From a virus (lineage: Duplodnaviria > Caudoviricetes): 64,000 nucleotides of DNA. Positions within the stretch are counted from its first letter, which is position 1; each line of letters starts with the position of its first letter. The position numbers were made by a program, and so were the translations under genes. The notes beneath the pieces are model-generated. The model was given only the letters and a program-made list of their open reading frames with translations. It was not told the origin of the DNA and searched no databases. Below are positions 761-29,566 of this stretch, in pieces. Location: positions 5,559 to 69,558 of IMG/VR virus record IMGVR_UViG_3300028886_000087; one strand, written 5' to 3'.

Positions 761-762
761 AT

Positions 763-2356: not shown

Positions 2357-2500
2357 TTACGTTTCCTCCTACATTTCAAGTATATCACAGGTTCGTGCAG
2401 AAGTCAAATTTCGTGAGCATGAGGGGTGAAATTTGAAATTTTTGCGTAAATCGGTTATAATTAAAATATAAAAAGGTTAAACTTAAATGGAGGAAGTTAA

Positions 2501-2713
2501 ATGGAAATAGTACAATGGATATTAACCCATGGAAGTGAAGTTGAATTAACTATTTCATGGTATGACATGAATATCGAATTTACAATGTATACTAGTTCAA
2601 ATAAACGCGTTTGTCGTAAAACCATTGACTACCATGAAATTGAAAATTATACCAATGAAATCATAACATTAATATTAGATTTAATGTATGATGAATTATT
2701 AAAGGAGAATTAA
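2501..2713 (+). CDS. Hypothetical protein
   Basis: GGAGG RBS; promoter TTGAAA-N17-TATAAT upstream. Confidence 0.75.
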   Translation: MEIVQWILTHGSEVELTISWYDMNIEFTMYTSSNKRVCRKTIDYHEIENYTNEIITLILDLMYDELLKEN

Positions 2714-2883
2714 TGGATAATTTAGATATAATAGGTATAATATTATTGTTAGTTGGATTAATAAGTTTAAGTGTTGGTGCAGCACTAACCTTTTTAAACC
2801 CTCTATTCTTCTATGTAGTGGTTTTTGGTTATGTTCTATGTATAATCGCGCCGGTGCTTATACTTTTTGATTTACTTAGATAG
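2713..2883 (+). CDS. Small membrane protein (56 aa)
   Basis: Hand translation MDNLDIIGIILLLVGLISLSVGAAL..., AAGGAG RBS. Confidence 0.65.
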   Translation: MDNLDIIGIILLLVGLISLSVGAALTFLNPLFFYVVVFGYVLCIIAPVLILFDLLR

Positions 2884-2889
2884 GAGGAT

Positions 2890-3126
2890 ATGGTAATGGA
2901 ATATGATAATGTAAACCACCCGGCGCACTATAACACAGGAAAGTATGAGTCAATCGACGTCATGGTTGAAACACAGGGTGCCGATGCAGTTAAAAACTTT
3001 TGCATCTGTAATGCATTTAAATACCTATACCGCCATCGTTTTAAAAATGGAATCGAAGATATAAAGAAAGCCATATGGTACTTAAACAAATATGTGGAAT
3101 TGGAGGAATCTACTAATGGCAAGTAA
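2890..3126 (+). CDS. DUF3310-like (SaV-like) phage protein
   Basis: DNVNHPAHY...FCICNAFKYLYR...KNGIEDIKKAIWYL signature. Confidence 0.85.
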   Translation: MVMEYDNVNHPAHYNTGKYESIDVMVETQGADAVKNFCICNAFKYLYRHRFKNGIEDIKKAIWYLNKYVELEESTNGK

Positions 3127-3283
3127 AGCAAAGTGGAAAAAGGGTATCAATTCATATCTCTGGCATTTTGGACTTAAATCAAAAGGCAGAGGTACTAAAC
3201 GAGTTGATTTCTATACATCTAGTGATAGACAAAAAATAAAACAACAAACGAAAAATCAACTTATGGAGGAAAATAATGACTAA
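3116..3283 (+). CDS. Small basic hypothetical protein
   Basis: MASKAKWKKG start with GGAGG RBS, overlapping previous stop. Confidence 0.65.
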   Translation: MASKAKWKKGINSYLWHFGLKSKGRGTKRVDFYTSSDRQKIKQQTKNQLMEENND

Positions 3284-3620
3284 ACGAGAAAGATTAGAAA
3301 TGGTTATTCGAGGGGAAATTAATGAAGAATTAATTGCCGATTGTAAAAGGGAGTTGGAAAAGTTAGACGTCCACCGCACCCATGCACGGGAGAACGCGAA
3401 TGGACAGGAAAACCGTGAAATGGAAGAGAAAATTATTGATGTTCTCTCGCGGGTTGAGGGACCGGTTCAAATTGATGAGTTGGGAGAGTTGATTGGCTGT
3501 ACGTTTGCGCGGCAGCGTCTGACGGCGATTTGTACGAACCTCATACGAGAGGGGCGTATATATAGCTGTGATGTGAAGACGAAGAAAGGGAAAAGGAAAG
3601 CATACTATATAGAGGGTTGA
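3276..3620 (+). CDS. Winged-helix DNA-binding protein, paralog 1 of 4
   Basis: MTKRE...ELEKLD...C-terminal KTKKGKRKAYYI wing; similar to 8770, 10761, 15793. Confidence 0.6.
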   Translation: MTKRERLEMVIRGEINEELIADCKRELEKLDVHRTHARENANGQENREMEEKIIDVLSRVEGPVQIDELGELIGCTFARQRLTAICTNLIREGRIYSCDVKTKKGKRKAYYIEG

Positions 3621-3965
3621 CGCCCTCTTTTTTTGATTTTTTATTTCATGGAGATTTTTTACTAGGCACCGGGCGCTTTAGCGCGCTAAAGTGCTAAAGT
3701 CCCAAATTCCTACCCCGCCAGTAGGAGTTAGAGAGGTCTAACTTTTTGCATTTAGTTTGGCTTAACTTTTTGGAACCTTCTTTTAGAAAAACTTAATTAC
3801 CTATTAAGGTGGTAGGTTTTAAAAGGTGGGGTACATTTTCCTAAAAATGATGTATAAATATACATTACTATGAATAAAAAATTTTTTATCTTTTTTAAAA
3901 AAAGGTATTGACTTCCGGTTTTATATGAGTATAATGGTATTAGATAAAGACAGGAGGTTAAGACA

Positions 3966-4430
3966 ATGAAAAACAATGAGATTAAAAGAACACTAATTCA
4001 GTTCTACAACAAACACGCTTTTACTCACAACTACATTCTGGGTTTCAGAATGAATGGCAACATCTACTATGTAATCGTTGACGCTAAGGAACTCGACTTC
4101 GTAACAAAGCTCGATAAGGCAAGTCGCGGGGCGGGCTACAGCCTTAGATTTAAGCCAAACAAGGCTCAGAAGAACTACCTTATGAGCCTCGGCGCTGAAG
4201 TGCTCTGCTCTGAAGAGTTCTTCGATGAACTCAAGACAATGAGCAAATACAACTTCGGTGAGCTGTTCGAGAAGCTCGTAACCGAGATGAATGGACAGAC
4301 CTGGGTTAAGGACAACGTACCATTCACAGAGGACGGAGACCTCACAGTTGACGGAGTTGCTTATCAGCTCAAGTTTGAAAAGGCAACATTCATCACTGAA
4401 GCACAGATGATGAGAATGGAGAGGGCTTAA
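3966..4430 (+). CDS. Hypothetical early protein
   Basis: Own promoter, GGAGG RBS, terminator hairpin AGAGGGC-TTAA-GCCCTCT. Confidence 0.85.
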   Translation: MKNNEIKRTLIQFYNKHAFTHNYILGFRMNGNIYYVIVDAKELDFVTKLDKASRGAGYSLRFKPNKAQKNYLMSLGAEVLCSEEFFDELKTMSKYNFGELFEKLVTEMNGQTWVKDNVPFTEDGDLTVDGVAYQLKFEKATFITEAQMMRMERA

Positions 4431-4543
4431 GCCCTCTCCGACTGGAGATAAAGAAGAACAAAGAAGTACAAGATAGGTATTGATAAGCTAAGCTGAAGAG
4501 AGTATAATATAGACAAGCTAAGAGATTGAAAGGAGATAGAACA

Positions 4544-4714
4544 ATGACAGTTAAGGAATTAATCGCAGAACTCGAAAAAATCGAAAATAAAAATATCGAA
4601 ATAACGATGTTAGCCGATGGCGGAGCCTATGATATTGAATCAATAAGTGTAAAAGAGTGGACTAACTCTCACAGTGAAAAAATATTGATATGTGAATTAA
4701 ATGGAGAGGAATAA
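4544..4714 (+). CDS. Small protein, MT(V/I)KELI family
   Basis: MTVKELIAELEKIENK; similar to 5198 and 14298. Confidence 0.75.
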   Translation: MTVKELIAELEKIENKNIEITMLADGGAYDIESISVKEWTNSHSEKILICELNGEE

Positions 4715-4839
4715 GCCAAAAGGCTTATTTTTTTTGACCGGGCCGCCGACAAAAAAACAAAGAAAAACAAAATAAATACTTGACTTTTAATTGTAAAACC
4801 TTTATACTATAGGTAGATAAAGAAAGGGAGGAAAGAAAA

Positions 4840-4992
4840 ATGACAAAGATGGAAATGGTAAACAGAATGATAATTCTCGGATGTATCAAAGAAGTAGACC
4901 GCAACAGATGGATGCACAAGACAAAAGCCGATGTGATGAGATGGTACATTGTAGCAGTGCCACGCAGACTCGAACATCTTGGGAGGGCATAG
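4840..4992 (+). CDS. Hypothetical protein (50 aa)
   Basis: Hand translation MTKMEMVNRMIILGCIKE..., promoter and GGGAGG RBS. Confidence 0.65.
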   Translation: MTKMEMVNRMIILGCIKEVDRNRWMHKTKADVMRWYIVAVPRRLEHLGRA

Positions 4993-4994
4993 AG

Positions 4995-5156
4995 ATGGCA
5001 AAGAAGAAGAACATATCAGTAGGAACAATAAAGGGGATTGATATAGTAAGACAGACTAAACCAATGCAGGATATACCTTTTAGAACAGGCGTTTATACAG
5101 ATAAAAGAAAGAAAAGAGAAAAAATTAATAAAAATAGACTTGACAAATGGTTGTAG
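4995..5156 (+). CDS. Small basic hypothetical protein
   Basis: MAKKKNISVGTIKG; GGAGG RBS. Confidence 0.65.
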   Translation: MAKKKNISVGTIKGIDIVRQTKPMQDIPFRTGVYTDKRKKREKINKNRLDKWL

Positions 5157-5197
5157 ATAGTCTATAATATAGATAGATAAAGGAAAGGAGAAAGAAA

Positions 5198-5383
5198 ATG
5201 AAAATTAAAGAACTTATTGCGGAACTTGAGCGAATAGAAAATAAAGAACTTGATGTAGTGGTGTTTAGTGAGGATTATGGTTATATAACAGATATAGATA
5301 TAGTGGAAACAAATAAGTATTATGGTAAGTCTGAATCATATGGTTGGGAAGCCAAAATAAGAGATTGCGTTGCACTCGTATAG
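5198..5383 (+). CDS. Small protein, MT(V/I)KELI family
   Basis: MKIKELIAELERIENK, near-identical N-terminus to 4544. Confidence 0.75.
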   Translation: MKIKELIAELERIENKELDVVVFSEDYGYITDIDIVETNKYYGKSESYGWEAKIRDCVALV

Positions 5384-5548
5384 TGCAACGTTTTTATTTA
5401 CTTATAAGTCGAACGTATGTTCGCGCCGAGTCGACCGGGCGCAACGACGAACATATGTTCTGTTTTATTAATAAATGTTAAGATAGTTGCATTTCCTCTT
5501 CATTTCTGTTATAATGTAATTACAAAAGATAAGAAAGGAGAAAATGAA

Positions 5549-5698
5549 ATGTTAATGATTATATTTGTGCTTTGGGCTATATTCGCTTTGGTTTGTGCCA
5601 TTCTTATTGAGGTTTACGAACATGAGTTCTTTGGTTTTTTGTTCTTGCTGTCACTTCCTCTTATGTTCTATGTGCCGTTTATAGTTGGATTGTTTTAA
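5549..5698 (+). CDS. Small two-helix membrane protein
   Basis: MLMIIFVLWAIFALV...; AAGGAG RBS. Confidence 0.65.
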   Translation: MLMIIFVLWAIFALVCAILIEVYEHEFFGFLFLLSLPLMFYVPFIVGLF

Positions 5699-5767
5699 AA
5701 TAAAAACTTGACTTTTTTATTAAAATATGATATAATAATTATAGAAAATAAGAAAGGAGAAAAAATT

Positions 5768-6127
5768 ATGGCAGTTTCTAGAAAAGTAGAAAGAGAAATA
5801 TTACGCAACGAATATCTTGAGGCAATTATCCTAAATTTCTTGGAAAAAGATGAACAAGTTTTACGAGTAAAATCTAATGAGATAGCAATTCCCGTTGTGG
5901 GGTGCGAGGGTAATGAAGATTTTATCGTCGTAACCGTAAAAGTTCCAACGGGAGCAAACAAAGGTACTGAACCATACGACGGTTACGAACTTGCGGAAGA
6001 TTATGAGATGAAAATCGCAGAAAAAGAACGCAAGAAAATCGAAACCGAAAAAAAGAAAGCGGAAAAAATCCGCAAAGATAAAGAGATTAGAGAAAAAAAG
6101 AAAGCAATTTCCGAAAAGGGTGAGTAA
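5768..6127 (+). CDS. Hypothetical protein with charged coiled-coil tail, paralog of 14674
   Basis: MAVSRK...VLRVKSNEIAIP...GCEGNEDFIV...KVPTGANKGTEPYDGY shared. Confidence 0.85.
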   Translation: MAVSRKVEREILRNEYLEAIILNFLEKDEQVLRVKSNEIAIPVVGCEGNEDFIVVTVKVPTGANKGTEPYDGYELAEDYEMKIAEKERKKIETEKKKAEKIRKDKEIREKKKAISEKGE

Positions 6128-6304
6128 TCACCCTTTATTTTTTTTGGAATTAAAACGAACATATGTTCATAGAATCGCGCCGGTCCGAAAATTCTCCGAA
6201 AAAGATTGTTAAAAAAATATTTATTTAAAAATTTTCCTAAAACTATTGACATATTCTTTCCTAATATTTATAATATAGATAGAAAAGGAAAGGAGATCGA
6301 AACA

Positions 6305-6595
6305 ATGACAAGCAGACATTACAACAGAGACCGCATCATCAGAGAAAAACTCATCAGAGAAATCGGTGTAGGCAAAGAAATCAAAACAGTAAGGGTTGAC
6401 AAAGGACACCCAAATGGTGCAGAACTCCACACAATCACAACAAACGGAATTATCATTATAAGAAACGAAAGAACAAACAAAATGATAACGAAGTTAATCG
6501 CAAGACCAAATCAGATTAAAAGATATGGCATTGAAGATAAGAAAGTTATCGAGATAGCAAGAAAACATCAGTCTCTCGGATACAATATGATTTAA
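6305..6595 (+). CDS. Hypothetical early protein
   Basis: MTSRHY...VDKGHPNGAELHTITTNG; promoter, RBS, terminator. Confidence 0.8.
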   Translation: MTSRHYNRDRIIREKLIREIGVGKEIKTVRVDKGHPNGAELHTITTNGIIIIRNERTNKMITKLIARPNQIKRYGIEDKKVIEIARKHQSLGYNMI

Positions 6596-6904
6596 ACGGA
6601 CGCAAGTCCGTTTTTTTATTGCCCATAGCGAAAACGATTTCGCTCGCGGCCGGTCCAACTATTCCGAAAATTAGTTTTTAGGGAATAGTTGGCGATTTTG
6701 AGCCTTTAAACCGTTGAAATTTCGTTACTTCAACTATTCCGAAAATTAGTTATATCGGAATAGTTGAAAAGTTGCGAAATCGTTTTCGCAACCGCGCCCG
6801 CGCGAAAAAAATTTAAAAAAGTTTAAAAAAGGTATTGACAGGGCAGTCGCAAAGTGGTATCATATAATTGTCAAAGGAAAGAGATAAAGAAAGGAAACAG
6901 AACA

Positions 6905-7378
6905 ATGACAAAGACAATCGCAACAATGCCAATTAACTACACATACAACGCAGAGAGAAAAGGTGCGCACTACCTCGTAGACGGTCGCACAAACTATGTA
7001 AACGGTGGCGAGTTCGCAGAAATCGTTTGCAAGGCAATCAGAGGTTTTGAAGCCATTAAAGACGCAAACACAAAATTTGATAAGGGTTCAGACATTGAGG
7101 AAACCAAAACATCAATTAAGTCGCACGGTTGCGGACTTACAGACGAGAAACTCGCAGACAACAGAGAGGACTTTCTCGCAGAATACTTCCGCAGAACTCA
7201 CTCAACAAATGTTGATTATGTAGACATTCAGAACGATGAAGTTATAATCTACAATATGGATATGAACGAGTTTAAAGAGTTTACAAACGAGTTCGCAAAG
7301 TGGGATAAACACTGCGCAAAGGTCAGAATTAAGACCACAAACAAAATGAGAGTATGGCTCGATGAAAGGGTCGCCTAA
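6905..7378 (+). CDS. Hypothetical early protein
   Basis: Promoter, RBS, terminator; GGEFAE...DI..TKTSIKS weakly nuclease-fold-like. Confidence 0.8.
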   Translation: MTKTIATMPINYTYNAERKGAHYLVDGRTNYVNGGEFAEIVCKAIRGFEAIKDANTKFDKGSDIEETKTSIKSHGCGLTDEKLADNREDFLAEYFRRTHSTNVDYVDIQNDEVIIYNMDMNEFKEFTNEFAKWDKHCAKVRIKTTNKMRVWLDERVA

Positions 7379-7579
7379 GGGCGATTTCTTTCGTTATAGG
7401 GCAAAATACGGCCTTCTAGACGTATACTCGCGCGCCGGTATGACCGGACCGGTCCGGCGCAGGAAACGCACGGGCGCGTGTATGGTGCGAAAAAATAAAA
7501 AAATTTTTTTAAAAAGGTATTGACAAAACACCGAAACCGTGTTATAATATAGATACAGTAAAGGAAAGGAGACAATTAA

Positions 7580-7798
7580 ATGCTTCGAGAATACACCATT
7601 CGCGGGTGTGTATGCTACCTCTCCGAAGAAACCATTCAGGCTTTCGAAGAGGAACAGAGAGCAATCGAAGACGAGCGCAGAGCGTGGGAAGATATGCATA
7701 GAATGTATCTTATCGCTTGCGAGAGTAATGACCCAATGGATTGGTCAATCTACTCTGACCTCTACAAGGATTGCTACGGATGCAGACCTCGCCACTGA
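7580..7798 (+). CDS. Hypothetical early protein
   Basis: Promoter and AAGGAG RBS; ends YSDLYKDCYGCRP. Confidence 0.75.
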   Translation: MLREYTIRGCVCYLSEETIQAFEEEQRAIEDERRAWEDMHRMYLIACESNDPMDWSIYSDLYKDCYGCRPRH

Positions 7799-8010
7799 AT
7801 AAGTTCGGAGTTCCTCGGTACTTGGCAACAGAAACCGATTTTTTTATTCCCTCTTCATCAAACATATGTTCGGTCGCGCCCGGGCCGCGATCCGGGTGTC
7901 GTTCCGGTCCAGGTTGACCCGGGCGCGACTTTGTGAAAAAATTAACACGATTGTATGTCAACAAATACAAAAAAGATGTTGACTTTCCTATATAGATTTG
8001 CTATACTTAT

Positions 8011-8345
8011 ATTGTCAAGAGGGAAATCGAGGTAGGAGGTTGGTTCTCAAAAAGATTTTGAGAAAAGTAGAAATTACCTCTTGACAATATCACAGAAATG
8101 TGATACAATATAATTGTCAAGGGGAGATGACGACCATCAAGAGAAATCTCTTCGGAGTGGAAATCCACACGCGTATGATGAGCCTAGAGGAATTTCATAC
8201 GGAGAGGACATCGAAAAAAAATGAAAAACTTTTCAAAACCCCTTGACACTATCACAGAAATGTGATACAATATAATTGTCAAGGGGATAAGGTAGAAACT
8301 TCAACGCGCGCGGAAGGTAATTCGATTGACAAGTTCCCCTTGACA
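8011..8345 (+). ncRNA. Three tandem promoter-driven small hairpin RNA candidates
   Basis: No ORF; closing stems 8011-8022/8078-8089, 8115-8124/8239-8248, 8277-8287/8335-8345. Confidence 0.5.
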
Positions 8346-8432
8346 GAAAAACATAAAAAAACAAAATAAAGTGTTGACAAAATAAAAAATCTATGATATA
8401 ATATAGATACAATAAAGAAAGGAGAAAAGTCA

Positions 8433-8567
8433 ATGAGCATTTACACATTCGCAAATCTCGATACATTCGAACTTTTCACAATCGAAGCGTCAACACTTGA
8501 AGAAGCAAACGAACTCGCTTCAAAGGTATGCGAAAACTTCAAAGTTTTCACAAGAAATTCTAAATAA
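8433..8567 (+). CDS. Hypothetical protein (44 aa)
   Basis: MSIYTFANLDTFELF...; promoter and AAGGAG RBS. Confidence 0.6.
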   Translation: MSIYTFANLDTFELFTIEASTLEEANELASKVCENFKVFTRNSK

Positions 8568-8769
8568 GGTATTGACAGATTGAAAAAAATCTGATACAAT
8601 ATAATCACAACAAAGAGTGCTGACGGTGAGTGAGTAGTCGGCAGTGGAACTTCCTAGGCTCGTCCACTAAAATAAAATTTAAAAAAGGTATTGACAAACA
8701 CTCAAAAGTTTGCTACAATATAATCACAAAGAAAAAACAAAACCCAAGTCAGTAGAAAGGAAAAACACA

Positions 8770-9120
8770 ATGACTAACAGAGAATTTTACACAGCAATCG
8801 TTAATGCTTATGATATTGAGCCAACTGAAACACAGTGGGAAGAACTCAAGGCTTTCGCCACAGACGCAATCGCAAAACTTGATGCACGCAACGCAAAGAG
8901 AGCGTCTACACCTTCCAAGACACAGAAGGAAAACGCACCGCTCATCGAGAAGATTGCTTCGCTTCTCACATCTGAGCCGAAACTCGCAAGCGAACTTGCT
9001 TCGGAAATGGAAATCTCCACACAGAAGGCAAGCGCACTTGTCAAGAAAGTTGAGGGTGTCAGCGTGTGCGATGTCAAGGTAAAGGGCAAAGGCACACAGA
9101 AGGGATACTTCTTCGCATAG
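8770..9120 (+). CDS. Winged-helix DNA-binding protein, paralog 2 of 4
   Basis: MTNREFY...AIAKLDARNAKRA...LASELASEMEISTQKASALVKK...KGKGTQKGYF. Confidence 0.75.
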   Translation: MTNREFYTAIVNAYDIEPTETQWEELKAFATDAIAKLDARNAKRASTPSKTQKENAPLIEKIASLLTSEPKLASELASEMEISTQKASALVKKVEGVSVCDVKVKGKGTQKGYFFA

Positions 9121-9296
9121 CCTAAAGGGGGTTAGCACTCGCTAACCCTTTTTTATTGCGAACATATCGAACATATGTTCGCGCGGGCCGGTCCATTGGT
9201 CCGGTCGATTGTTAAAAAAATAACTTTTAAAAAAGTGTTGACAAATTGAAATAATTTGATTATAATATAAGTGTAATAAGAAAGGAGAATAAAATA

Positions 9297-9479
9297 ATGA
9301 TATATGAGATTAACGTATGTAAAAGAGGTATACAAATTATAGATAAAGAAACATATTATAATATTATAAATAATATAACAAACTATGGAATGATAATTAC
9401 TAATAAAATTGAAACTTCTACAAAATGTCATATTGATATTGAATGGAATCCATATGAAAAATTTTATACTCCACAATAA
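9297..9479 (+). CDS. Hypothetical protein
   Basis: Promoter and AAGGAG RBS. Confidence 0.6.
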   Translation: MIYEINVCKRGIQIIDKETYYNIINNITNYGMIITNKIETSTKCHIDIEWNPYEKFYTPQ

Positions 9480-9692
9480 AATTTTAAAAATTACGTATAC
9501 TCGCGCGATGTCAAGGAAACTTTACATCGCGCGAACTTGTACATAGATTGTTAATAAATTAACAACAAAGTCGACCGGGCGCGATTGTGAATTTTTTCAC
9601 GACGGAAAAAACAAAGAAAAACATAAAAAGGGGTTGACTTCCTTAAACTTATCCTTTATAATAAAGGTACAAAAGGAAAGGAGATTAAGACA

Positions 9693-9830
9693 ATGACATA
9701 CGAAGAAATAATTGATAGACTTGAATTTGCAAAGTTAAGAATTAATAATTGCACTTATTCGCCTGAAACGATTGAAGCAATTGAAATAGCAATTTCTATC
9801 GTCAAAGAAAAACAAGAAAATACAAAATAA
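9693..9830 (+). CDS. Hypothetical protein (45 aa)
   Basis: MTYEEIIDRLEFAK...; promoter and RBS. Confidence 0.6.
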   Translation: MTYEEIIDRLEFAKLRINNCTYSPETIEAIEIAISIVKEKQENTK

Positions 9831-9897
9831 ACTATTGACAAACTCTCATAAATAGTCTATAATATAGATACAAAGAAAGAAAGAGAGGAAAACAGAA

Positions 9898-10332
9898 ATG
9901 ATAAAAATTATCAATCTCGATTGCGACGGAACATTCATCAATCTCTATGGCGTGAATGGTTGGCTCGATGACCTTATCAATGAAGATGTTAGACCATACA
10001 GAGAAGCAAAACCACTTGTAAATCTCGTATGGTTCGCAAGAACAATCCACGAATTGCAGAATAAAGGTTGGAAAGTAAATATCATTTCGTGGACTTCAAA
10101 AAATGGCACAAAAGAATACAATGCAAGAGTTAAACAGACTAAACTTGAATGGTTTGAAACTCATATCCCAAGCGTAAAGTTCGATAATGTTTATATCGTA
10201 GACTACGGAACACCAAAAACATCACTTGCAAAAGGTATTCTGTTTGATGATGAAGAACACAACAGAAACGAATGGAATGGAATAGCATTTGATGAAAAAG
10301 ATTTGATAAAGAAAATGAGAGCCTTTCTGTAA
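9898..10332 (+). CDS. HAD-superfamily phosphatase (5'-nucleotidase-like)
   Basis: Motif I LDCDGT, SWT, K..K, LFDD...N..W. Confidence 0.75.
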   Translation: MIKIINLDCDGTFINLYGVNGWLDDLINEDVRPYREAKPLVNLVWFARTIHELQNKGWKVNIISWTSKNGTKEYNARVKQTKLEWFETHIPSVKFDNVYIVDYGTPKTSLAKGILFDDEEHNRNEWNGIAFDEKDLIKKMRAFL

Positions 10333-10469
10333 AGGTTCTCATTTTTATGTATTTATATACACTGCGGCCGGTCGAACGTGTGTTCGACGTGGCCCGGGCG
10401 CGATTGTTAAAAAAATAACTAATGGAAAAAGTGTTGACAGATTTAGAAATTTTTGCTATACTATAATTG

Positions 10470-10694
10470 TCAAGGGGAGAGATGCCCACGGGAAGTGCCG
10501 AGGCAACCCTCCGAAAAAATCTAGGGTTCAGTATTAGGAAACAACTTTAAGAAACACTCCCCTTGATAAAAACATAAAAAAACATAAAAAAGATATTGAC
10601 ACAAACTAAAAAGTGTGCTACAATATAATTGTCAAGAGGAATAGAAAAGAACAAAATAAAAAAAATTAAAAAAGTTCTAAAAAAGTCTTGACAA
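10470..10694 (+). ncRNA. Two promoter-driven small hairpin RNA candidates
   Basis: Closing stems 10470-10479/10557-10566 and 10629-10637/10686-10694; no ORF. Confidence 0.45.
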
Positions 10695-10760
10695 ACCCAA
10701 ACAAATCAGTTATAATAAAGACACAAGTTAAAAAGTTAAAAAAAGAAAGGAAACAAAATT

Positions 10761-11090
10761 ATGACACAGAGAGATTTCTACAACGCAGTTATCAACGCTA
10801 ACATCAACGAGGAAATGACCTCATTCGCAAGCGAAGCAATCGCAAAACTTGATGCTCGCAACGCAAAGAGAGCAAACACCAAGTCAAAGACACAGATTGC
10901 TAACGAGCCAATCATCGAAGCAATTTCGAGAGTTCTCACAGATGAGCCAATGCTCGCATCGAAGATTGCGGAACTCTGCGAGATTTCAACGCAGAAAGCA
11001 TCGGCACTCGTTAAGAAAGTCGAGGGCGTTCAGTCAGTCGATGTAAAGGTTAAGGGAAAGGGAACGCAGAAAGGATACTTTCTCGCCTAA
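10761..11090 (+). CDS. Winged-helix DNA-binding protein, paralog 3 of 4
   Basis: Highly similar to 8770 (AIAKLDARNAKRA, ISTQKASALVKKVEGV, KGKGTQKGYF). Confidence 0.75.
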   Translation: MTQRDFYNAVINANINEEMTSFASEAIAKLDARNAKRANTKSKTQIANEPIIEAISRVLTDEPMLASKIAELCEISTQKASALVKKVEGVQSVDVKVKGKGTQKGYFLA

Positions 11091-11329
11091 CCTTAAAGCG
11101 TATAGTGGGCACGCATAAGTCCCACCCCACTTAAATGGTTTTCATTTCTTTCACCTCCTTTCAAGAAGAAACGCACGCAAAGTGCGTTTTTTCGTTCGTA
11201 GAAAACGAACATATGTTCGCGCCGGCCCGGGCACGACCGGGCGCGATTGTATGGATTTTAATACAAAGAAAAGTGTTGACTTTTCAAAATAATTGCTTTA
11301 TAATTAGAGTATCAAAGGAGGAAATAAAA

Positions 11330-11710
11330 ATGACTGATACTTTCGAATTAGAGAGAGACATCTATTGGTATCTTGTTGCTCGTAAAAAACTGATGCTTGC
11401 TTCAGATATTGCTTATGATAATGATATAACTACACAGAAAGCATCTGTTGTGTTAAAAAAATTAGTTCGTAATGGAGTTATTAAGGAAATACCTTACAAT
11501 TCTAAAAAATGGTATGGTACAGATGAAGCAGGTTTAAACTTTGGTTGTAGTTTATTTTATGACTATAAAAATAATCCAATTAAGGTTGAGACAATCGTAG
11601 AAAACGAAGATAATGTGGTTGAGTTTGAATTTGAAAACTCTAAAAAATCATACAAAGATAAATTTCTATCACTATTATATAATATAGTTTACGATTATTT
11701 TTACAATTGA
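11330..11710 (+). CDS. Winged-helix-containing hypothetical protein
   Basis: MLASDIAYDNDITTQKASVVLKKLVRNG resembles the HTH of 8770/10761. Confidence 0.6.
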   Translation: MTDTFELERDIYWYLVARKKLMLASDIAYDNDITTQKASVVLKKLVRNGVIKEIPYNSKKWYGTDEAGLNFGCSLFYDYKNNPIKVETIVENEDNVVEFEFENSKKSYKDKFLSLLYNIVYDYFYN

Positions 11711-11741
11711 AAAGATTATAAATTAAAAAGGAGAAAATAGA

Positions 11742-11876
11742 ATGGAAGATAAAACTATAAGATGTATACTCAAGTGTAAAATGTCAATTATTGACATTAT
11801 GGAAGAATATGACATCGAAAATGACACAGAAGTATTAATAGAACTTAAAAAATGGATTGAAAAGATTATAAATTAG
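11742..11876 (+). CDS. Hypothetical protein (44 aa)
   Basis: AAGGAG RBS; flanked by 20-bp direct repeat. Confidence 0.55.
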   Translation: MEDKTIRCILKCKMSIIDIMEEYDIENDTEVLIELKKWIEKIIN

Positions 11877-11889
11877 AAAGGGGAATAAA

Positions 11890-12087
11890 ATGGAAGTAAT
11901 AAATATCAGATGTCCCAAGTGTAAGGGCGAATTGATACTTGAAGATGAATATAACGATAGTGATATTTTTAACGATACTTATATAGATATAGGCACTTGC
12001 TATTGTAAACAGTGTGGGTCAGAATATATAATAAATACATATTACAAATTTTCGCACTTTGAACTTGGAGAAGAAATTAAAGAATAA
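11890..12087 (+). CDS. Zinc-ribbon protein
   Basis: CPKC...CKQC. Confidence 0.7.
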   Translation: MEVINIRCPKCKGELILEDEYNDSDIFNDTYIDIGTCYCKQCGSEYIINTYYKFSHFELGEEIKE

Positions 12088-12208
12088 AGCGAACACACGT
12101 TCGCTTTCGCCCGGGCGCCGATTGTTAAAAAAATTAACGACAAACTTTCTACTTGACAAATTTTTAAATTATTGTTATAATTAGGTATCAAAAGAAAGGA
12201 GATTAGAA

Positions 12209-12687
12209 ATGGACAAAACAATAGAAGTAGCAGAAAAAGTAAAAACTTTTTTGATAAATGAAGTAATGAGAAATAATTTTTCTGATGAAGATTATGGAAA
12301 AACTATTATTTATTTACGCAATTGGTTTGAAGCCGAAGCAACCTTTTTGAAGATTAAAGGAGATAGATAAATGAAAACTTATCGTATTACAATGACAACT
12401 GAATATATCATTGAAGCGAATACAGTAGATGAAGCATTGGATATGATTGATTATTCTTACGAAACAGATTCATATTATGATTCTATCGAAGAGTTGTCAG
12501 AAGAGGAGGATTGAAAATGTATCATAAAATTTATGAAAGTGCAATACGTCAAATAGATAATGGTACAATGACAAAAACAGAAGCAATTGAATGGATAAGA
12601 AGTGGTTATCATTCAGAACAGAATAAAAAGAAAGCAATTAGATTGATAGAAATACACTATCTTGGAAAGGAGAAATGCAATGGTTAA
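12209..12687 (+). CDS. Three tiny coupled ORFs (12209-12370, 12371-12514, 12517-12687)
   Basis: Hand translations of 53, 47 and 56 aa, each with AGGAG-type RBS. Confidence 0.6.
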
Positions 12688-12868
12688 ATGTCCAAAGTGT
12701 GGTGTTAAAGGTTGGGAAAATTATTATCCTATTGCTACATTAGATAGAGATTTTACTGATGATATGATGGTAGAAACTAATAAGGTAGAATGCACAGAAT
12801 GTCATCATCATTATATTATCAGAGAATTTTTTAAACTCTCATTCGTAAAATCTTATAATGTCAATTAG
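12680..12868 (+). CDS. Zinc-ribbon protein
   Basis: CPKC...CTEC, resembles 11890. Confidence 0.7.
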   Translation: MVKCPKCGVKGWENYYPIATLDRDFTDDMMVETNKVECTECHHHYIIREFFKLSFVKSYNVN

Positions 12869-13017
12869 CGAACATACGTTCGCTTTTGCCCGGGCCGCCT
12901 TGTGAAAAAATTCACAGGTAAAAAACATAAAAAAACATAAAAAAGGTATTGACTTCCCATAATAAATCGCTTATAATTACATTGTAAGATAAAAGAAAAA
13001 AGAAAGGAAGTAATACA

Positions 13018-13368
13018 ATGAAAGCAATCTATGATATTAAGAATGAAATGAGAATGGTAAAAAGAACTCTTGAAGTTATCGAAACAGAAGTAAACGGAAA
13101 AGATTTCACAGTAAAAGACTTACGCAATAAAAAGGGCGGTTATATGATTAGTGGTGCTTCAATGAAAGCACTTCAGCGTAGAGGACTTATTAAAAAAGTT
13201 GGAGAATGTCCAAGTTCTTTTAAAAAAGAAATTTATGTAGATAGATGCATTGGATATGTTGAGGTTGACATTCCTACTACAGTAAAAGTATATAGACAGA
13301 TACACAATTTTGAATGGTATCAGAATGTAATGCTTAAAACTCTTACTGATGCAGTAATGAATGTATAA
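13018..13368 (+). CDS. Hypothetical, possible winged-helix protein
   Basis: FTVKDL...SMKALQRRGLIKKV; promoter and RBS. Confidence 0.65.
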   Translation: MKAIYDIKNEMRMVKRTLEVIETEVNGKDFTVKDLRNKKGGYMISGASMKALQRRGLIKKVGECPSSFKKEIYVDRCIGYVEVDIPTTVKVYRQIHNFEWYQNVMLKTLTDAVMNV

Positions 13369-13509
13369 GGGTGCGAACGAGTGTTCGCACTCGTTCGCCC
13401 GGGCCGCCTTGTTAAAAAAATAACTTTTAAAAAATTTTAAAAAAGGTATTGACACACCTTTTTTATTTTGCTATAATGTAGATACAATAAAGAAAGGAAA
13501 TAAAACACA

Positions 13510-14151
13510 ATGGAAAAAATACTCATTATAGACACTGAAACGACCAATGATTTGACAGATAGTTTGGTTTATGATTGCGGTTTCATCGTAGCAGATTACA
13601 ATGGAACAATCTATTCTAAACATTCGTTCGTAAACGCAGACGTTTTCTGCGATAAGGAACTTATGGCTTCGGCATACTTCGCAGAGAAAATCCCAACATA
13701 TTGGAAAGAGATTAAAAGTGGTTTGAGAACTCTAACTTCTTTCAGAAACATAATGTGGACACTTCGCCACATAATGAAAGAGAACAACATCACAAAAGTT
13801 TATGCGTATAATTGCAGATTTGATTATTGCGCACTCGCAACAACACAGAGATATTTAACTAAATCGAAGTATCGTTTTTTCTTCCCTTATGCGACTTCGT
13901 TTTGTGATATACTCGCATATTCAAGAGAGGTTTTGAAAACAGATAAAAATTATCGTCAATTCTGCATTGATAATGGTTATCTCACCGCAAGAAATGCAAA
14001 TAGATATACCGCAGAAATAGTCGCTCGTTATTTCTTTGATAATGATTTTGTAGAAGAACACACAGCACTTTTAGATAGTGAAATCGAGTATAAAATCTTA
14101 ATGAAATGTATCGAGTTAGACGGACTTAACTATGATTGTAAAATGTGGTAA
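13510..14151 (+). CDS. DEDDh 3'-5' exonuclease (DnaQ/RNase T-like)
   Basis: ExoI IIDTETT, ExoII AYNCRFD, ExoIII HTALLD. Confidence 0.85.
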   Translation: MEKILIIDTETTNDLTDSLVYDCGFIVADYNGTIYSKHSFVNADVFCDKELMASAYFAEKIPTYWKEIKSGLRTLTSFRNIMWTLRHIMKENNITKVYAYNCRFDYCALATTQRYLTKSKYRFFFPYATSFCDILAYSREVLKTDKNYRQFCIDNGYLTARNANRYTAEIVARYFFDNDFVEEHTALLDSEIEYKILMKCIELDGLNYDCKMW

Positions 14152-14297
14152 CTACCACATTTTATTTTTATGCTCTTTGTTAAAATTTTCACACACCGCG
14201 GCCGGTCACTTGTTAATAAATTAACTTTTTAAAAAGGTGTTGACAAACAGAAATAAAAGAGTATAATTATATTAGATAAAGAAAGGAGATTAAAATA

Positions 14298-14453
14298 ATG
14301 ACAGTTAGAGAACTTATAAATATATTACTTAATTATGAAGTCGATGAAGAAATTGATTTCTTTCTGCTTAAAGAAGATTATACACCACGCATAATAATCA
14401 AAGAGGTTAGCCAAGAATCAGATTTACCATATATCGAATTTAAAGAGGTATAA
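14298..14453 (+). CDS. Small protein, MT(V/I)KELI family
   Basis: Hand translation MTVRELINILLNYEVDEEI... Confidence 0.65.
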   Translation: MTVRELINILLNYEVDEEIDFFLLKEDYTPRIIIKEVSQESDLPYIEFKEV

Positions 14454-14673
14454 TACCTCTTTTTATTTATCTGAAAACGAACAAACGTTCGTATTCGGCG
14501 GCCGGTCACTTGTTAATAAAATAACAACAATCTTTTTCTGCCCGGGCCGCCGCGCAAGTTAGTCAAGACAAACTTTCCCAAATCTTGCACTTTTTAAAAA
14601 ACTTGCAATCTCTGAAAATATCAGTATAATTATAATATAAGATAAAGATTTGAAGTGAAAGGTTAGGTGTCCT

Positions 14674-15036
14674 ATGGCAGTATCAAGAAAAGCAGAACGT
14701 GAACTCATCAGAGCAGATTTTCTCGACAGAGTGTCGAAGTTTCTCTTTGAAGGTGGCGAAGAGGTTCTTCGCGTCAAGTCCAATGAAATCGCAATTCCTT
14801 GCGTAGGTTGCGAAGGCAACGAGGACTTCATCGTTATCAACTTCAAGGTGCCAACTGGCGCGAATAAGGGAACAGAACCATACGATGGTTATGCTCTCGC
14901 AGAGGATTACGTTCACAATCTCGCAGAGAAGGAACGCAAAGCCGAAGAGCGCAAAGCCGAGAAGGCGCGCAAGATTGCACGCGATGCAGAACTCAGACGC
15001 AAGCGCGCAGAGATTGCGGAAAAGGGTGGTAAGTAA
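14674..15036 (+). CDS. Hypothetical protein, paralog of 5768
   Basis: Shared core motifs; higher GC codon usage than its paralog. Confidence 0.85.
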   Translation: MAVSRKAERELIRADFLDRVSKFLFEGGEEVLRVKSNEIAIPCVGCEGNEDFIVINFKVPTGANKGTEPYDGYALAEDYVHNLAEKERKAEERKAEKARKIARDAELRRKRAEIAEKGGK

Positions 15037-15301
15037 ACCACCCTTTTTTATTGGTCAACTATCGAACATATGTTCGGTGGCAGATAAATAGTTATCGTCG
15101 CGCGGATCCGGGCCGATCTGGTCCGGACATTGCCCGGGCTGATTGTCAAATTTTTAACAAAGTCAAATTTTGGGAGCGAGTTTGTTAATAATTTATTAAC
15201 AATTAGAGGTCTCTAACTTAGTTAGTCGTGTCTAACTCGAACATATGTTCCGAACAAATGTTCGTGTGCCGCGGCCACGCGCCGCCGATGTCGGCCGTGG
15301 A

Positions 15302-15502
15302 GGAGCTGCATTAGGGAGCTGTGAAGGAGCTGCAGCTGGCCCGCGCGACGGAGCTGCGCCTGTGCGACGAAAAGGAGCTGCGACTAAGAGCTGCGGGGTG
15401 CCGCCTAAAAATTTGACTTTTAAAATCAAATTTCTTTGGAGCTGTGTCGTCGTCAAAATTTGAAAAATTTTGTCAAATTTTCAGCGCGCATCCCACGAGC
15501 TG
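15302..15502 (+). repeat. (G)GAGCTG iteron-like direct repeats, 8 copies
   Basis: 15302, 15315, 15326, 15350, 15374, 15388, 15438, 15497. Confidence 0.8.
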
Positions 15503-15792
15503 TGACTTCGATGGCGGCTGCGTTCCCACAAATTGAAATTTGAAAAAGTTTCAAAATAGCTTTATAATATATATAGAAAGTGAGAGAGACAATAAAGTAA
15601 AATAAAAGGCTTTCCGCCGAACGTTCTTTCTCACTTTCCCGCAGGATTCAGAAATAAATAATTTGAAAAGTTCTGAAAATTTTGCTATAATATATATAGA
15701 AAGTGAGAGAGAAAAGTAACTTCTCCACCACTATAAAACAACATTCAACGTAACTGGTGCTCACTACCTAGTGTGAGAGAAAGTAGGACAAA

Positions 15793-16146
15793 ATGACAAA
15801 GGTTGAAGCTTACAAGGCAGTTATCGCAGGTGAAGTAACTGAGGAAGTAAAGGAAAAGTTCACAGAAATGCTCGCGGCTCACGAGGCTGAGGGTGAGAAG
15901 AGACGCAACAGAGCAGCTGAGAAGAGAGCTGAGAAGCTGGCTTCGGAGAAGGTGCTTGAGGATGGAGTGCTTGCAGTGCTCGGTGAGGACGCTATGACTG
16001 CTTCCGACATCAGAGACGCTGTCGAGGGCATCGAGACTTCGCAGAAGGCGACTGTAATCGCCAAGAGACTGGTTGCAGCTGGACGCGCTGTTCAGACAGA
16101 GGTCAAGGGCAAGTCTGGAAAGGTCAAGGGCTACATTCTCGTGTAG
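15793..16146 (+). CDS. Winged-helix DNA-binding protein, paralog 4 of 4
   Basis: MTASDIRDAVEGIETSQKATVIAKRLV...KGKSGKVKGYI. Confidence 0.7.
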   Translation: MTKVEAYKAVIAGEVTEEVKEKFTEMLAAHEAEGEKRRNRAAEKRAEKLASEKVLEDGVLAVLGEDAMTASDIRDAVEGIETSQKATVIAKRLVAAGRAVQTEVKGKSGKVKGYILV

Positions 16147-17200
16147 TATACGTAATACTTATACGTAAAAGCACAGGTTTTACACCTGTGCTTTCTCTTT
16201 TGTTCTGTTTTTTTGTGGAAATTTGACAAAAAATTACAAATTTTCGCATTATTTTTTTGTTTTTTGAACACAAAATTTGACTTTTGATGGTGTGTGGGGC
16301 TGCCATTTTTTATAGCTTTTACTACCTATCTCCTGACCCCTACACGACGTTCCCGTAGGCAAGTCACCCTCCCAACAAGTAGACAACCTCTTCGTATACG
16401 TAGCTGCACAATCGCCGCACACTTTTTTACGACTACGGCAACTACTTATACGTATACGTATACGACCTACTTACCTATATACTTATACGTTTATTATTGA
16501 GGTTACCCAACTACGTTTATCGTATCTGCTGCTCCATACGTTTACCGTTATATGTCCTCCTATACCTACCCTCTTACCTCCTATCCGTTTACGTTTATCG
16601 TATACTTGCCGCACTCTACCTCCGGGGTGAGACCCGAGGTACGTTGTTCCGCAGAAGCTGGACCCTTATATACGTATATATATACTTATACGAACTACGT
16701 ATACTAATTGTTGTGGGCCTCCGGGGTGAAACCGGAGGTACGTTGTTTTGTCGCGGCTGGCCGTTGTATATATGTATACTAGCCGTTGCGGTTGTCCGTA
16801 GTAGTTCCGCGGTACGTTCCTGAGCTGCGGGGACTGCGCCCCTTGTCAGGACCGACACGCGGAGCTCACTACATTGGCTTTTTTACGTATAAGTATATGT
16901 ATATATATACGTATACGTAATACGTATACATATATGTATAAGTTTTTCTATTTTGATTATAAGTAGATTTTAGTTTTAATTCCTACTATTTTTTTGAGAC
17001 ACGAATTTTTGGAAAATAAATAGCCTCGCAGATTCCTACAAAATAAATGCTCGTTGAAATTCCTACAAAATTAATTACGACTCTATGTTCCTGTTATACG
17101 TATACTCGCGGCCGTCCCATAGACTGACCGAATGGACGGTTTTCTAGAAAATTTATGACCCGCCGCGAGTATGCGTAGAACTTTCTACAAAATAATTCCC
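16147..17200. other. Non-coding low-complexity region at the transcription convergence point; origin or packaging-site candidate
   Basis: Many TATACG/TACGTA repeats, pyrimidine skew, duplicated CTCCGGGGTGA...GAGGTACGTTGTT at 16620 and 16720, TT(C/T)CTACAAAAT x3. Confidence 0.45.
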
Positions 17201-17220
17201 AATAAAAAAGAAGGGTTAAT

Positions 17221-18339
17221 TCACCCTTCCAATCTTTTCCCGTAAGAACAATAGTCAGTTTCGTTCTTAACCATTCTATGTTCTTCGCAATAAACCAATC
17301 CGACGATGCGCAGCCGGCGCAGCCGTTCACCGCGAGTATGAATACAATCACCACATCGAACCAATTCACACACTCGTTGCTGTTGTAATATACCTATATC
17401 ATCATACCATTCCTTTACTATATATTCTTTCAAGGCAACTTCTCCAATAGTTCAATTTCTTCTAATAGATGTCTTATATACTCATCAATCTTATCATATC
17501 GCACATATCTGCGACAAATTTTACAAGGCTCACATTTGGAATAGCCGTTAAGTCGACAGAGATTTTCTGGAAAATATTCGCCATCGACTTCTACATCTCC
17601 ATCCCAAGCCCAATAACAATCCCATTTTTCCACTATTCTTCACCATTCCAATAATTATCTATTTCAGCTACTTCTTCCGCAGTAGGCGGCCGTCCGTCAG
17701 AATAGCACAAATCAATTAACTTTTCCATTACTGCGATATAGTCGTTATGTTTCTCATAATGTTTTTCCAGCCACTGATAGTGTTCTTCGCACCAGTCTAC
17801 TGCTTCCCAAAATCCTTCCATACGAATTTTTTCTAATTCAGTATGTCCTTTATAATCTGGAAGAGCTCGCGCGCACCATGATTGAGACCTATTAAATTCA
17901 CAATCTTCACAATTATCAACAGGGCAATTCACTTCTTCCATATATTACTCCTACCATATTAAATTACAAATCCATACGCCCAGATTTATACCTATCACCA
18001 TACAAGCACAGGCACCAATTAAACCTAAACCCCATATTATGATTTCTTTAATCCAGCTCATTAATCCCTCCAAATAGCTCTGCCGCAGTGTGGACAAAAC
18101 TTATAATCATGATTTACATCAACCGCGAGTATTGGCTTATCACAGCTTTTACAAAAGAACACATGATACAGAATTTCCTCTGAACCCTCGCGCCGCACCG
18201 GCTGCCAATAAGAAAGTTCGGTATACGGCTCATCCTCATAGGTTGAAATTACCTCATCAAGGTCTGCCCAACTCCAATCTCCATCATGTTCATGTCTCCA
18301 AAAAATAGTATTCAGTTTCTCTTTACAAATTACTTCCAT
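17221..18339 (-). CDS. Block of small hypothetical, mostly Cys-rich proteins (17221-17433, 17430-17633, 17633-17941, 18061-18339)
   Basis: Coupled ORFs with CxxC motifs. Confidence 0.7.
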
Positions 18340-18357
18340 TATAATCTCCTTATATCT

Positions 18358-18681
18358 CTAATCAATAAACTGCACTTCTAAACCTGAAGCCAAACATTCA
18401 TTTACCCTTATGCTAACTGCGCCGGCGCTAAGAATCTGCTCTTTATTTAAGCAAAATTCTACATCGAAGTCTTCGTCTAATGCGCCGCAGTCCTTACAGT
18501 TCCTAAAATTACCATCGTATTGACAGATATGGTAGGCAGAGTTAGTTGAATATCTTGCTTTCCATCTACCATCTATATCTTTCTCATAGGTAAGCTGTAT
18601 ATACTTTCCATGAACCAGAGGCTGGGTCATTATTATTTTCTTGTATTGACTTACATAGTCTTTATTTACTTTGCGCGCCAT
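18358..18681 (-). CDS. Hypothetical protein
   Basis: ORF track; AAGGAG RBS. Confidence 0.75.
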   Translation of the reverse strand: MARKVNKDYVSQYKKIIMTQPLVHGKYIQLTYEKDIDGRWKARYSTNSAYHICQYDGNFRNCKDCGALDEDFDVEFCLNKEQILSAGAVSIRVNECLASGLEVQFID

Positions 18682-18696
18682 TGATACTTCTCCTTA

Positions 18697-19508: not shown

Positions 19509-19521
19509 AAGTTATTCCTTT

Positions 19522-19818: not shown

Positions 19819-19925
19819 AATAATTTTTCCTTTCTTATCTTATACTTAATTATATCAAAAATTCCTAAAAAATTCAAATTTAAAAGACCGCACTCCTATA
19901 CGTAGAAGCGCGGCCGTCCCATAAA

Positions 19926-28976: not shown

Positions 28977-29061
28977 ATAAAGTGGAGTTATTCCGGACCT
29001 CCACTAACCCTATATTTTACAAGTGGGGTTATGACTTGATATAATAATTGCAATTATATAC

Positions 29062-29490: not shown

Positions 29491-29566
<76 letters not shown>

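Follow-up and report, generated by a model that had tools for sequence, protein, structure and literature searches.

Phages that draw on host regulators are known in two settings. Temperate phages can place their lytic switch under the host SOS repressor LexA through one or a few boxes on the switch promoter, as in GIL01 (where LexA acts with gp7, and gp6 is a LexA homologue), coliphage 186 with tum, CTXphi and SPC32H (PMC9437464, PMC6182141). Virulent phages that use a host global regulator make up few systems: the Spo0A boxes at the early promoters of phi29 and Nf (PMC2731898) and the CtrA-site clusters, associated with “lytic deferment”, of Alphaproteobacteria phages (PMC9437464). Here we analyze an array of boxes that match the LexA operator of Gram-positive bacteria (B. 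subtilis consensus CGAAC(n)4GTTCG; PMC4551915) in 64,000 nucleotides of an uncultured phage (referred to hereafter as the window; bases 5559–69558 of the 69,558-bp IMG/VR viral contig IMGVR_UViG_3300028886_000087, CheckV completeness ~57%). The boxes are confined to one block of host-type promoters, recur in a family of related, apparently virulent phages and appear to be held there by purifying selection, as part of a composite module that also contains sites resembling those of other host repressors.

The palindrome GAAC-N4-GTTC occurs 14 times in the 64 kb of the window (12-mers starting at 5411, 5449, 5618, 6157, 9169, 10374, 11207, 12091, 12870, 13375, 14479, 15064, 15239, and 15252), whereas shuffled sequence gives 0.63 on average and never more than 3 (0/100 shuffles reach 14). 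All 14 matches fall within 5411–15263, that is, within 15% of the window, while the other 54 kb, like the 5.5 kb of contig to the left, contains no match; count and clustering are those reported in an earlier note on this DNA, and no comparable density arises in shuffles or outside the block. Ten of the matches extend to the full 14-mer CGAAC-N4-GTTCG, the remaining four being 12-mers, and 13/14 are intergenic with an RNRY centre. The earlier note had listed eight centres, all fitting RNRY; a ninth, ATGA, does not, and belongs to the match GAACATGAGTTC at 5617–5630. Because this match lies inside an open reading frame (ORF; 5549–5698), where it is read as E-H-E-F, and because the same coding match recurs in the relative G003, we take it to be fortuitous, probably a coding coincidence rather than an operator. 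Conversely, the list had missed a box with one mismatch, CAAACATATGTTCG (7859–7872, the 12-mer from 7860), which is followed by the same downstream module as the others, with the GC palindrome GCCCGGGC 6 nt later (7878–7885).

The distribution of the boxes follows that of one of two promoter classes. The early block (3908–14630, + strand) contains ~30 near-consensus TTGACA-17-TATAAT sigma-A promoters, all on the + strand and ahead of short genes with strong AAAGGAGG ribosome-binding sites. A second class, AAATTTGAAAA-N-TATAAT-ATATATAGAA, is very uniform, occurs on both strands and serves everything outside the early block; by sequence pattern its members lie at 2433, 15540, and 15663 on the + strand and at ~20 sites on the − strand (e.g., 20805, 22969, 25591, 26863, 28830, 33270, 36762, 39112, 43331, and 46246). 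These class-2 promoters are probably of a middle or late class, for the reading of which a sigma-like protein (1028–2356) is perhaps the partner. Since the sigma-A type is limited to 3908–14630, the boxes lie in a block of early genes read by host RNA polymerase. The proteins of this block are mostly of no known family, with a DnaQ-like exonuclease (13510–14151) and a 5′-deoxynucleotidase-like protein (9898–10332; NT5C, just below the Pfam cut-off) among them.

Relatives allow the selection on the box to be judged. A composite pattern (box, 3–12 nt, GCCCGGGC) has matches in 54 IMG/VR loci, ~37 of which are low in GC, derive from ~30 contigs and contain boxes and GC palindromes in multiple copies. 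The relatives share 66–98% nucleotide identity with the early block of the window in a mosaic fashion, and each locus is a one-strand array of 10–27 consensus promoters; across the ~37 loci, 25–50% of the early promoters per locus have a box ending 40–80 bp upstream of the −35. Three complete relatives, G002, G003, and G004 (135–140 kb), have 10–15 AT-centred boxes gathered in one block of 6–12 kb, and the matches outside this block have GC-rich centres that fail RNRY.

That GAAC and GTTC “stay fixed”, as the earlier note put it, follows from how the search was built; the selection that it read from this is nevertheless supported by the positions which the search left free and by a test anchored on GCCCGGGC. 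When only the free positions are scored, position −1 is C in 85% of 225 unique boxes from the ~37 low-GC loci and position +12 is G in 83%, with A (81%), T (77%), A (76%), and T (67%) or C (29%) along the spacer. The resulting profile is C-GAAC-RTAY-GTTC-G, beyond which the flanks hold ~0 information. RNRY is found in 80% of these boxes (91% if either strand is counted) vs 11% in background, and the spacers ATAT, ATAC, and GTAT together account for 64% of family boxes (ATAT for 38% by itself).

The anchored test is unbiased in that it starts from the independent GCCCGGGC element: among 193 unique modules, 90 have an exact box, 8 have a box that departs from it at one base, always the outermost of an arm (AAAC in three and GTTT in five), 6 have one with two mismatches, and 89 have no box. 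Box presence next to GCCCGGGC is hence bimodal—exact or absent, with few intermediates. Orthologous upstream regions behave in a gene-specific way: those of the exonuclease gene (13510) keep the box arms in 7/11 cases, each with a different spacer and with unrelated sequence farther upstream, that of the gene at 6305 (behind box 6156) has a box in 5/5, and those of a set of winged-helix paralog genes have one in 0/29. Because neither a bimodal distribution nor the retention of arms with changed spacers is expected from neutral decay, the pattern is best read as purifying selection on a 14-bp protein-binding site rather than as decay of a duplicated cassette; free-position profile and anchored bimodality agree here with the proposal in the earlier note that spacer variation reflects selection for protein binding and not simple duplication. 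We also observe that all ten block boxes of G002 (139.7 kb; block at 48557–60926) share the spacer AAAT/ATTT, unlike the mixed spacers of the window, which suggests either a recent copy-and-paste spread or a lineage-specific preference.

No box in the window overlaps any −35/−10 core promoter. In place of the 50–120 bp that the earlier note gave for most boxes, 11 boxes end 30–112 bp before the next −35, which places their centres at ~−71 to −153 from the transcription start, and three at the right boundary (tandem pair included) have no downstream sigma-A promoter; the judgment of that note that the boxes are too far away for ordinary steric repression agrees with the lack of overlap. What that note did not recognize is that the box, treated there as a stand-alone element, is one component of a composite module, ordered as terminator or stop codon of the preceding gene, box, GCCCGGGC (at a typical gap of 6 nt), Rex-type palindrome, A-tract, and −35/−10. 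Eight GCCCGGGC palindromes (at 7878, 10392, 11225, 12109, 12888, 13397, 14540, and 15132, spanning 7878–15139) occur in the block and nowhere else in the contig. Across the family loci (L005–L057) the element usually follows the box by 5–6 nt, a gap found in 55/98 family modules. This GC palindrome contains a SmaI site and, in an AT-rich genome, is as striking as the boxes themselves.

The individual boxes illustrate this arrangement. At the left end of the block, a pair 38 bp apart (5411/5449) consists of CGAACGTATGTTCG (5410–5423), after a terminator at 5367–5391, and CGAACATATGTTCT (5448–5461), followed at 30 bp by a TTGCAT-17-TATAAT promoter (5491). The box CGAACATATGTTCA (6156–6169) follows a terminator (6115–6136) and precedes the −35 at 6246 by 77 bp, and CGAACATATGTTCG (9168–9181) precedes the −35 at 9238 by 57 bp. 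Two boxes with GCCCGGGC 6 nt downstream again follow terminators: CGAACGTGTGTTCG (10373–10386; terminator 10311–10346, −35 at 10434) and a second CGAACATATGTTCG (11206–11219; terminator 11175–11187), behind which the −35 at 11276 drives a weak winged-helix gene (11330–11710). Preceding genes take the place of the terminator at CGAACACACGTTCG (12090–12103), 4 nt after the stop of gene 11890–12087 and with GCCCGGGC 6 nt downstream and a −35 at 12153, and at CGAACATACGTTCG (12869–12882), 2 nt after the stop of gene 12680–12868 and followed by GCCCGGGC, the Rex-type palindrome TTGTGAAAAAATTCAC, and a −35 at 12949. The notion that a box replaces the terminator was dropped as a rule because most boxes of the window stand directly after one.

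Upstream of the exonuclease gene lies CGAACGAGTGTTCG (13374–13387), where the stretch 13374–13397 consists of perfectly inverted 10-bp arms around TTCG (CGAACGAGTG-TTCG-CACTCGTTCG); at the site orthologous to this box, the spacer of L009 and L051 is the reverse complement (ACTC). The box CGAACAAACGTTCG (14478–14491) follows a terminator (14442–14462) and has its −35 (TTGCAA) at 14603. A third CGAACATATGTTCG (15063–15076) comes after the last early gene (14674–15036) and lacks a downstream sigma-A promoter, and the right boundary is occupied by the tandem double box CGAACATATGTTC-CGAACAAATGTTCG (15238–15264, 13-bp pitch), directly before GGAGCTGC repeats and conserved in 6/7 aligned relatives. 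Paired boxes mark the block ends in G002, G003, and G004 as they do in the window.

The palindrome between the GC element and the −35 resembles the operator of a second host repressor (compared with the Rex sites in PMC5886521). Twelve such sites of the form TTGTKAA-N4/5-T(W)MAC lie within 7931–15158 (e.g., at 9209, 9548 (a full 18-mer), 10404, 12122, 12900, 13409, 14510, and 15143), the form TTGTTAA-A4/5-TAAC also occurring. Family-wide, they are found at 28–31, 40–42, and 48–49 bp before the −35 (R = 0.80 at a 10-bp period), steps of ~10 bp which imply that all of them lie on a single helix face with respect to RNA polymerase. Full 18-mers (TTGTKAA-N4-TTMACAA) number 56 in 373 kb of family loci vs 0 in composition-matched simulations. 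By the same comparison, exact CodY-type 15-mers (AATTTTCAGAAAATT; consensus from PMC5314169 and others) number 7 vs 0; these belong to a sub-lineage (L009, L032, L034, L048, and L053), where they sit in the LexA-box slot upstream of GCCCGGGC, and there are none in the early block of the window. The slot can also hold other palindromes, namely AGTTAGT-N2-4-ACTAACT, GACACATA-N5-TATGTGTC, and CGGGAGCATATGCTCCCG (loci L014 (G001) and L038 (G005); L010, L025, L028, L046, and L057; L009 and L034), the first of which is dominant in the 120-kb and 180-kb G005 and G001 lineages, where LexA-type boxes are few.

An RNRY spacer and a GTTY refinement of the arm complete the Gram-positive LexA operator, in the consensus form CGAACRNRYGTTYG. 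The box profile coincides with this operator at the positions that the search did not fix (flanking C/G, RTAY spacer, tolerance of GTTT), and a GTTY-like degeneracy of the outer arm is present, in that all eight one-mismatch boxes next to GCCCGGGC have their change at arm position 1 or 12. A Gram-positive LexA operator would be expected to overlap or abut the core promoter of the regulated gene, and in this the window boxes differ. In every feature testable by sequence, then, the boxes are members of the Gram-positive LexA-operator class, with the exception of their position relative to the promoter, and we consider it probable that LexA binds them. Operators of the host are much likelier than phage-specific look-alikes, because three independent matches to the consensus of a host global repressor (LexA, Rex, and CodY) come together in this family.

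The phage itself appears to encode no such repressor. Neither of the Pfam families LexA_DNA_bind and Peptidase_S24 was found in any of the six frames of the contig or of four 100%-complete relatives, which extends the statement of the earlier note that the window has no lexA- or CI-like gene; a profile built from five Clostridia LexAs (filters off) matched none of 4,410 ORFs (best E 0.48), and PDB sequence searches with three early proteins returned no LexA-like domain. Phage_integrase (tyrosine), Resolvase (serine recombinase), and ParB_N are likewise absent from the contig and the four complete relatives. A temperate lifestyle was rejected on the absence of integrase, resolvase, and ParB from the complete relatives, and a LexA-held lysogeny of the GIL01 type finds no support, there being no lysogeny apparatus and no SOS-cleavable repressor in the same set. 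Since lysogeny genes are absent and a transfer RNA (tRNA) array and a sigma-like gene are present, the phage is apparently virulent. In systems where LexA holds the switch, the box sits on a key lytic or antirepressor promoter; here no box touches a −35 or −10.

The phage RtcB is closest to those of Lachnospiraceae and other gut or rumen Clostridia (63–68% identity), a match that points to a candidate host lineage; the hosts are probably gut or rumen Clostridia-type Firmicutes. In Lachnospiraceae genomes selected as candidates by RtcB similarity, the lexA genes have GAAC-N4-GTT(C/T) boxes upstream. Ten Clostridia genomes or metagenome-assembled genomes (MAGs; G006–G015, 1.5–6 Mb) hold just 0–4 perfect 14-mers each, nearly all with GC-rich centres, against 0–15 per genome for a non-complemented reverse control. 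Because the perfect CGAAC-N4-GTTCG is as rare as its control or rarer, the natural SOS operators of these lineages are sub-consensus, and one phage genome carries more perfect operators than a candidate-host chromosome. The idea that the RtcB-carrying bacterial contigs were binned relatives of the phage was rejected (their genomes hold 0–3 perfect 14-mers and no arrays).

The reading that we tentatively prefer, at a little under an even chance, is that the boxes are host LexA operators giving distal, SOS-state-dependent control of some of the early units. Large phages of Clostridia-type Firmicutes, forming one apparently virulent family, would have taken up operators for the host’s own LexA and set them as the upstream-most element of a composite control module ahead of sigma-A early promoters. 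In an undamaged cell, we infer, LexA dimers would occupy the boxes and, from −70 to −150, adjust the output of certain, but not all, early transcription units, most probably jointly with the binders of the GC palindrome and the Rex-type site, or else by blocking read-through from the preceding unit; occlusion of RNA polymerase is less favoured. Upon SOS induction, cleavage of LexA would remove this input, thereby coupling the early programme to the physiological state of the host in the manner of phi29/Spo0A and of CtrA “lytic deferment”. Such wiring is supported by the confinement of the boxes to the sigma-A early block (class-2 intergenic regions exist genome-wide), by the 5–6 nt spacing to GCCCGGGC, by the gene-specific association, by the different operator types that occupy the same slot, and by the helical phasing of the Rex-type sites.

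Several points weigh against distal control by LexA. The three right-boundary boxes have no sigma-A promoter downstream, and the box-to-promoter distance is broad (41–98 bp) with weak 10-bp phasing (R = 0.26). We know of no LexA repression exerted from −70 to −150, and the repression of early genes in healthy cells seems odd, even counter-productive, for a virulent phage. The gene-specific association may reflect ancestry shared among relatives that are 70–90% identical, rather than selection. The assignment of the host lineage is indirect, being drawn from RtcB similarity and from promoter and ribosome-binding-site style. The phage sites are perfect consensus, stronger than the lexA operators of the host lineages, a strength that fits sequestration no less well than it fits regulation of a tunable kind. 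Lastly, the phage DNA may be modified, an early 5′-deoxynucleotidase being present; replacement of thymine as in SPO1 is not indicated, since the phage family has no hydroxymethylase of the ThyA family.

Sequestration is the likeliest of the alternatives. Here the boxes would bind LexA without regulating phage genes, and replicated phage genomes (hundreds of copies, each with 10–15 perfect operators) would titrate LexA and de-repress the host SOS response without DNA damage, with no need of a phage protein; the Rex- and CodY-type sites would do likewise. We regard this as unlikely, and would say the same of its wider form, in which amplified arrays of LexA-type, Rex-type and, in relatives, CodY-type operators form a protein-free sponge that switches on SOS, redox/fermentation, and nutrient-acquisition regulons. 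The contrast between ten full 14-mers in 10 kb of phage DNA and 0–4 in a whole Clostridia genome or MAG speaks for a sponge, as do the imperfect boxes of host-lineage lexA genes, the distal position of phage boxes clear of every core promoter, the boxes (conserved tandem pair included) that adjoin no sigma-A promoter, the loosely constrained distance to those that exist and the co-occurrence in the family of consensus sites for three different global repressors. Operator-bound LexA is reported not to be cleaved (PMC3159453), because of which its sequestration would be physically meaningful. Yet any intergenic region would serve a sponge, and in both contig and complete relatives the boxes keep to the sigma-A early block; nor does a sponge predict a fixed 5–6 nt spacing to GCCCGGGC, an association with particular genes or an optimal ATAT spacer in just 38% of boxes, and the literature searched gave no precedent for a phage operator sponge. 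The earlier note had preferred a decoy or roadblock role to a prophage induction switch. Its second half stands, the switch being unlikely because the LexA DNA-binding domain, S24 peptidase, recombinases, and ParB are all absent; its first half goes beyond the facts, several of which point to organized wiring upstream of promoters, while others (the perfect consensus and distal position of the boxes, their broad distance to the −35, and the three boxes without a sigma-A promoter) favour a position-tolerant role as a sponge or a roadblock.

A protein of the phage’s own might instead recognize the boxes or mimic LexA at them, auto-regulating or shutting off early transcription, much as TF1 of SPO1 acts at SPO1 early promoters. 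Candidates exist: four winged-helix paralogs of 109–117 aa (3276–3620, 8770–9120, 10761–11090, and 15793–16146), which have ~50 distinct homologues in relatives, and the protein 11330–11710, which has sub-threshold TrmB/HTH_20 matches. The predicted fold of the paralogs is a helical N-terminal part and a winged helix (predicted local distance difference test score, pLDDT, 81) that best matches regulators of the PadR/ArsR/MarR type, although none of these matches reaches E ≤ 0.001 and the top ones include no LexA structure; so generic a predicted fold neither assigns the family to the box nor excludes it. The occupation of the box slot by GACACATA..TATGTGTC, AGTTAGT..ACTAACT, and CGGGAGCATATGCTCCCG in other lineages is the pattern expected of phage-specific repressors, and in GIL01 a LexA homologue, gp6, does act on LexA-like sites (PMC6182141). 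Against this stand the lack of any LexA-like domain by Pfam, lineage profile or PDB sequence search, the identity of the 14-bp profile with host LexA at every unselected position, the exact Rex and CodY matches (such that three coincidences would be needed) and the 0/29 count of boxes upstream of the winged-helix genes themselves, and we consider a phage-encoded binder quite unlikely.

Highly improbable is a box without any dedicated protein, carried along in a duplicating promoter cassette that serves as a homology patch for early-gene shuffling (compare the promoter-early stem-loop (PeSL) modules of T4-like phages): the early regions are indeed mosaic, homology-block ends within 30 bp are about twofold more frequent at box sites than at box-less promoter-upstream points (3.46 vs 1.59 per site) and the ten AAAT boxes of G002 look recently pasted, yet the breakpoint enrichment is modest, 14 bp is too short for homologous recombination, decayed intermediates are almost lacking, the 14 bp are conserved between flanks devoid of information, the spacer is constrained to RNRY, and orthologous sites keep their boxes while changing spacers.

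Beyond the boxes themselves, the block closes on the right with non-coding sequence that is conserved and in which the lone box at 15064 is followed by GCCCGGGC, two Rex-like palindromes, a CTAAC/GTTAG palindrome, the tandem box 15239/15252, six GGAGCTGY direct repeats, and the first class-2 promoter (15540). The repeats are iteron-like (15302–15445, + strand) and lie in the GC-rich non-coding stretch that ends the block. Within 15085–15540, the conserved features comprise a GATAAATAGTTATC palindrome, the 21-bp palindrome TTGTTAATAATTTATTAACAA, CTAACttaGTTAG, and a AAATTTGAC...TCAAATTT palindrome, besides the tandem box pair and the repeats; the region may be an origin of replication, a site of packaging or the place where early expression gives way to middle expression. 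Near both ends of the block, box pairs adjoin paralogous genes of ~120 aa (5768–6127 and 14674–15036; MAVSRK...LRVKSNEIAIP.VGCEGNEDFIV, with a tail rich in lysine, arginine, and glutamate), whose family is widespread in relatives and has as its sole match phrog_18482 (unknown function). Elsewhere, the contig carries 30 tRNA genes on the − strand (28902–37525, ~8.6 kb) adjoining RtcB (25617–26807), a DNA ligase, and tail proteins in addition to the sigma-like protein. An Rfam search of 1–20000 gave only sub-threshold mir-297 matches, nothing relevant, and neither megablast of 5000–16000 nor tblastn of two large proteins found a match among 50,697 cultured-phage records.

The family thus described, apparently virulent and uncultured, with genomes of 120–180 kb and at least 30 contigs, carries 10–15 perfect LexA-type operators per genome at promoter-distal positions, inside a fixed module with Rex-type and, in some lineages, CodY-type consensus sites; in the literature searched, and to the extent of that library, there is no report of LexA-box arrays in virulent phages. 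If LexA binds, these phages may read DNA damage, redox, and nutrient status through the sensors of the host or, alternatively, may manipulate the corresponding regulons by repressor sequestration. Either would extend the concepts of “lytic deferment” or host takeover to anaerobic Firmicutes.

In overall layout the locus is like the early region of SPO1-type phages, in which dense sigma-A promoters and many short genes precede a switch to phage sigma factors: it has ~30 one-strand sigma-A promoters ahead of short genes whose function is unknown, along with a second promoter class and a sigma-like protein. It is unlike SPO1 in that the window has no detectable sequence relationship to cultured phages, and to our knowledge arrays of host-repressor operators have not been described for SPO1.

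As a site, the box compares most directly with dinBox1 of GIL01 and the SOS Cheo box of B. subtilis (PMC4551915), with which it shares the 14-bp palindrome, an RNRY/AT-rich spacer, a tolerated GTTT, and the occurrence of tandem boxes. Cheo boxes lie over or just downstream of the core promoter, whereas the phage sites lie 70–150 bp upstream of starts, and the phage family has 10–15 of them per genome, most of perfect consensus. The temperate LexA switches would resemble this system in that the phage relies on host LexA in place of an SOS-sensitive repressor of its own. They belong, however, to temperate phages (GIL01, 186, CTXphi, and SPC32H) with one to few boxes on a key lytic or antirepressor promoter, whereas this family has many distal boxes and, in its complete genomes, no integrase, resolvase, ParB, S24 or LexA homologue. 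With the phi29-Spo0A sites and the CtrA clusters it shares a skew of high-scoring sites toward the promoter regions of one block, recurring across related phages; it departs from them in the putative regulator (LexA, with Rex- and CodY-type sites in the family), in the promoter-distal placement, in the fixed module with a GC palindrome, and in being known, as a site and as a system, from its sequence. By analogy, then, the box array as a system is most like the host-regulator site clusters of virulent phages, and not the LexA switches of temperate ones.

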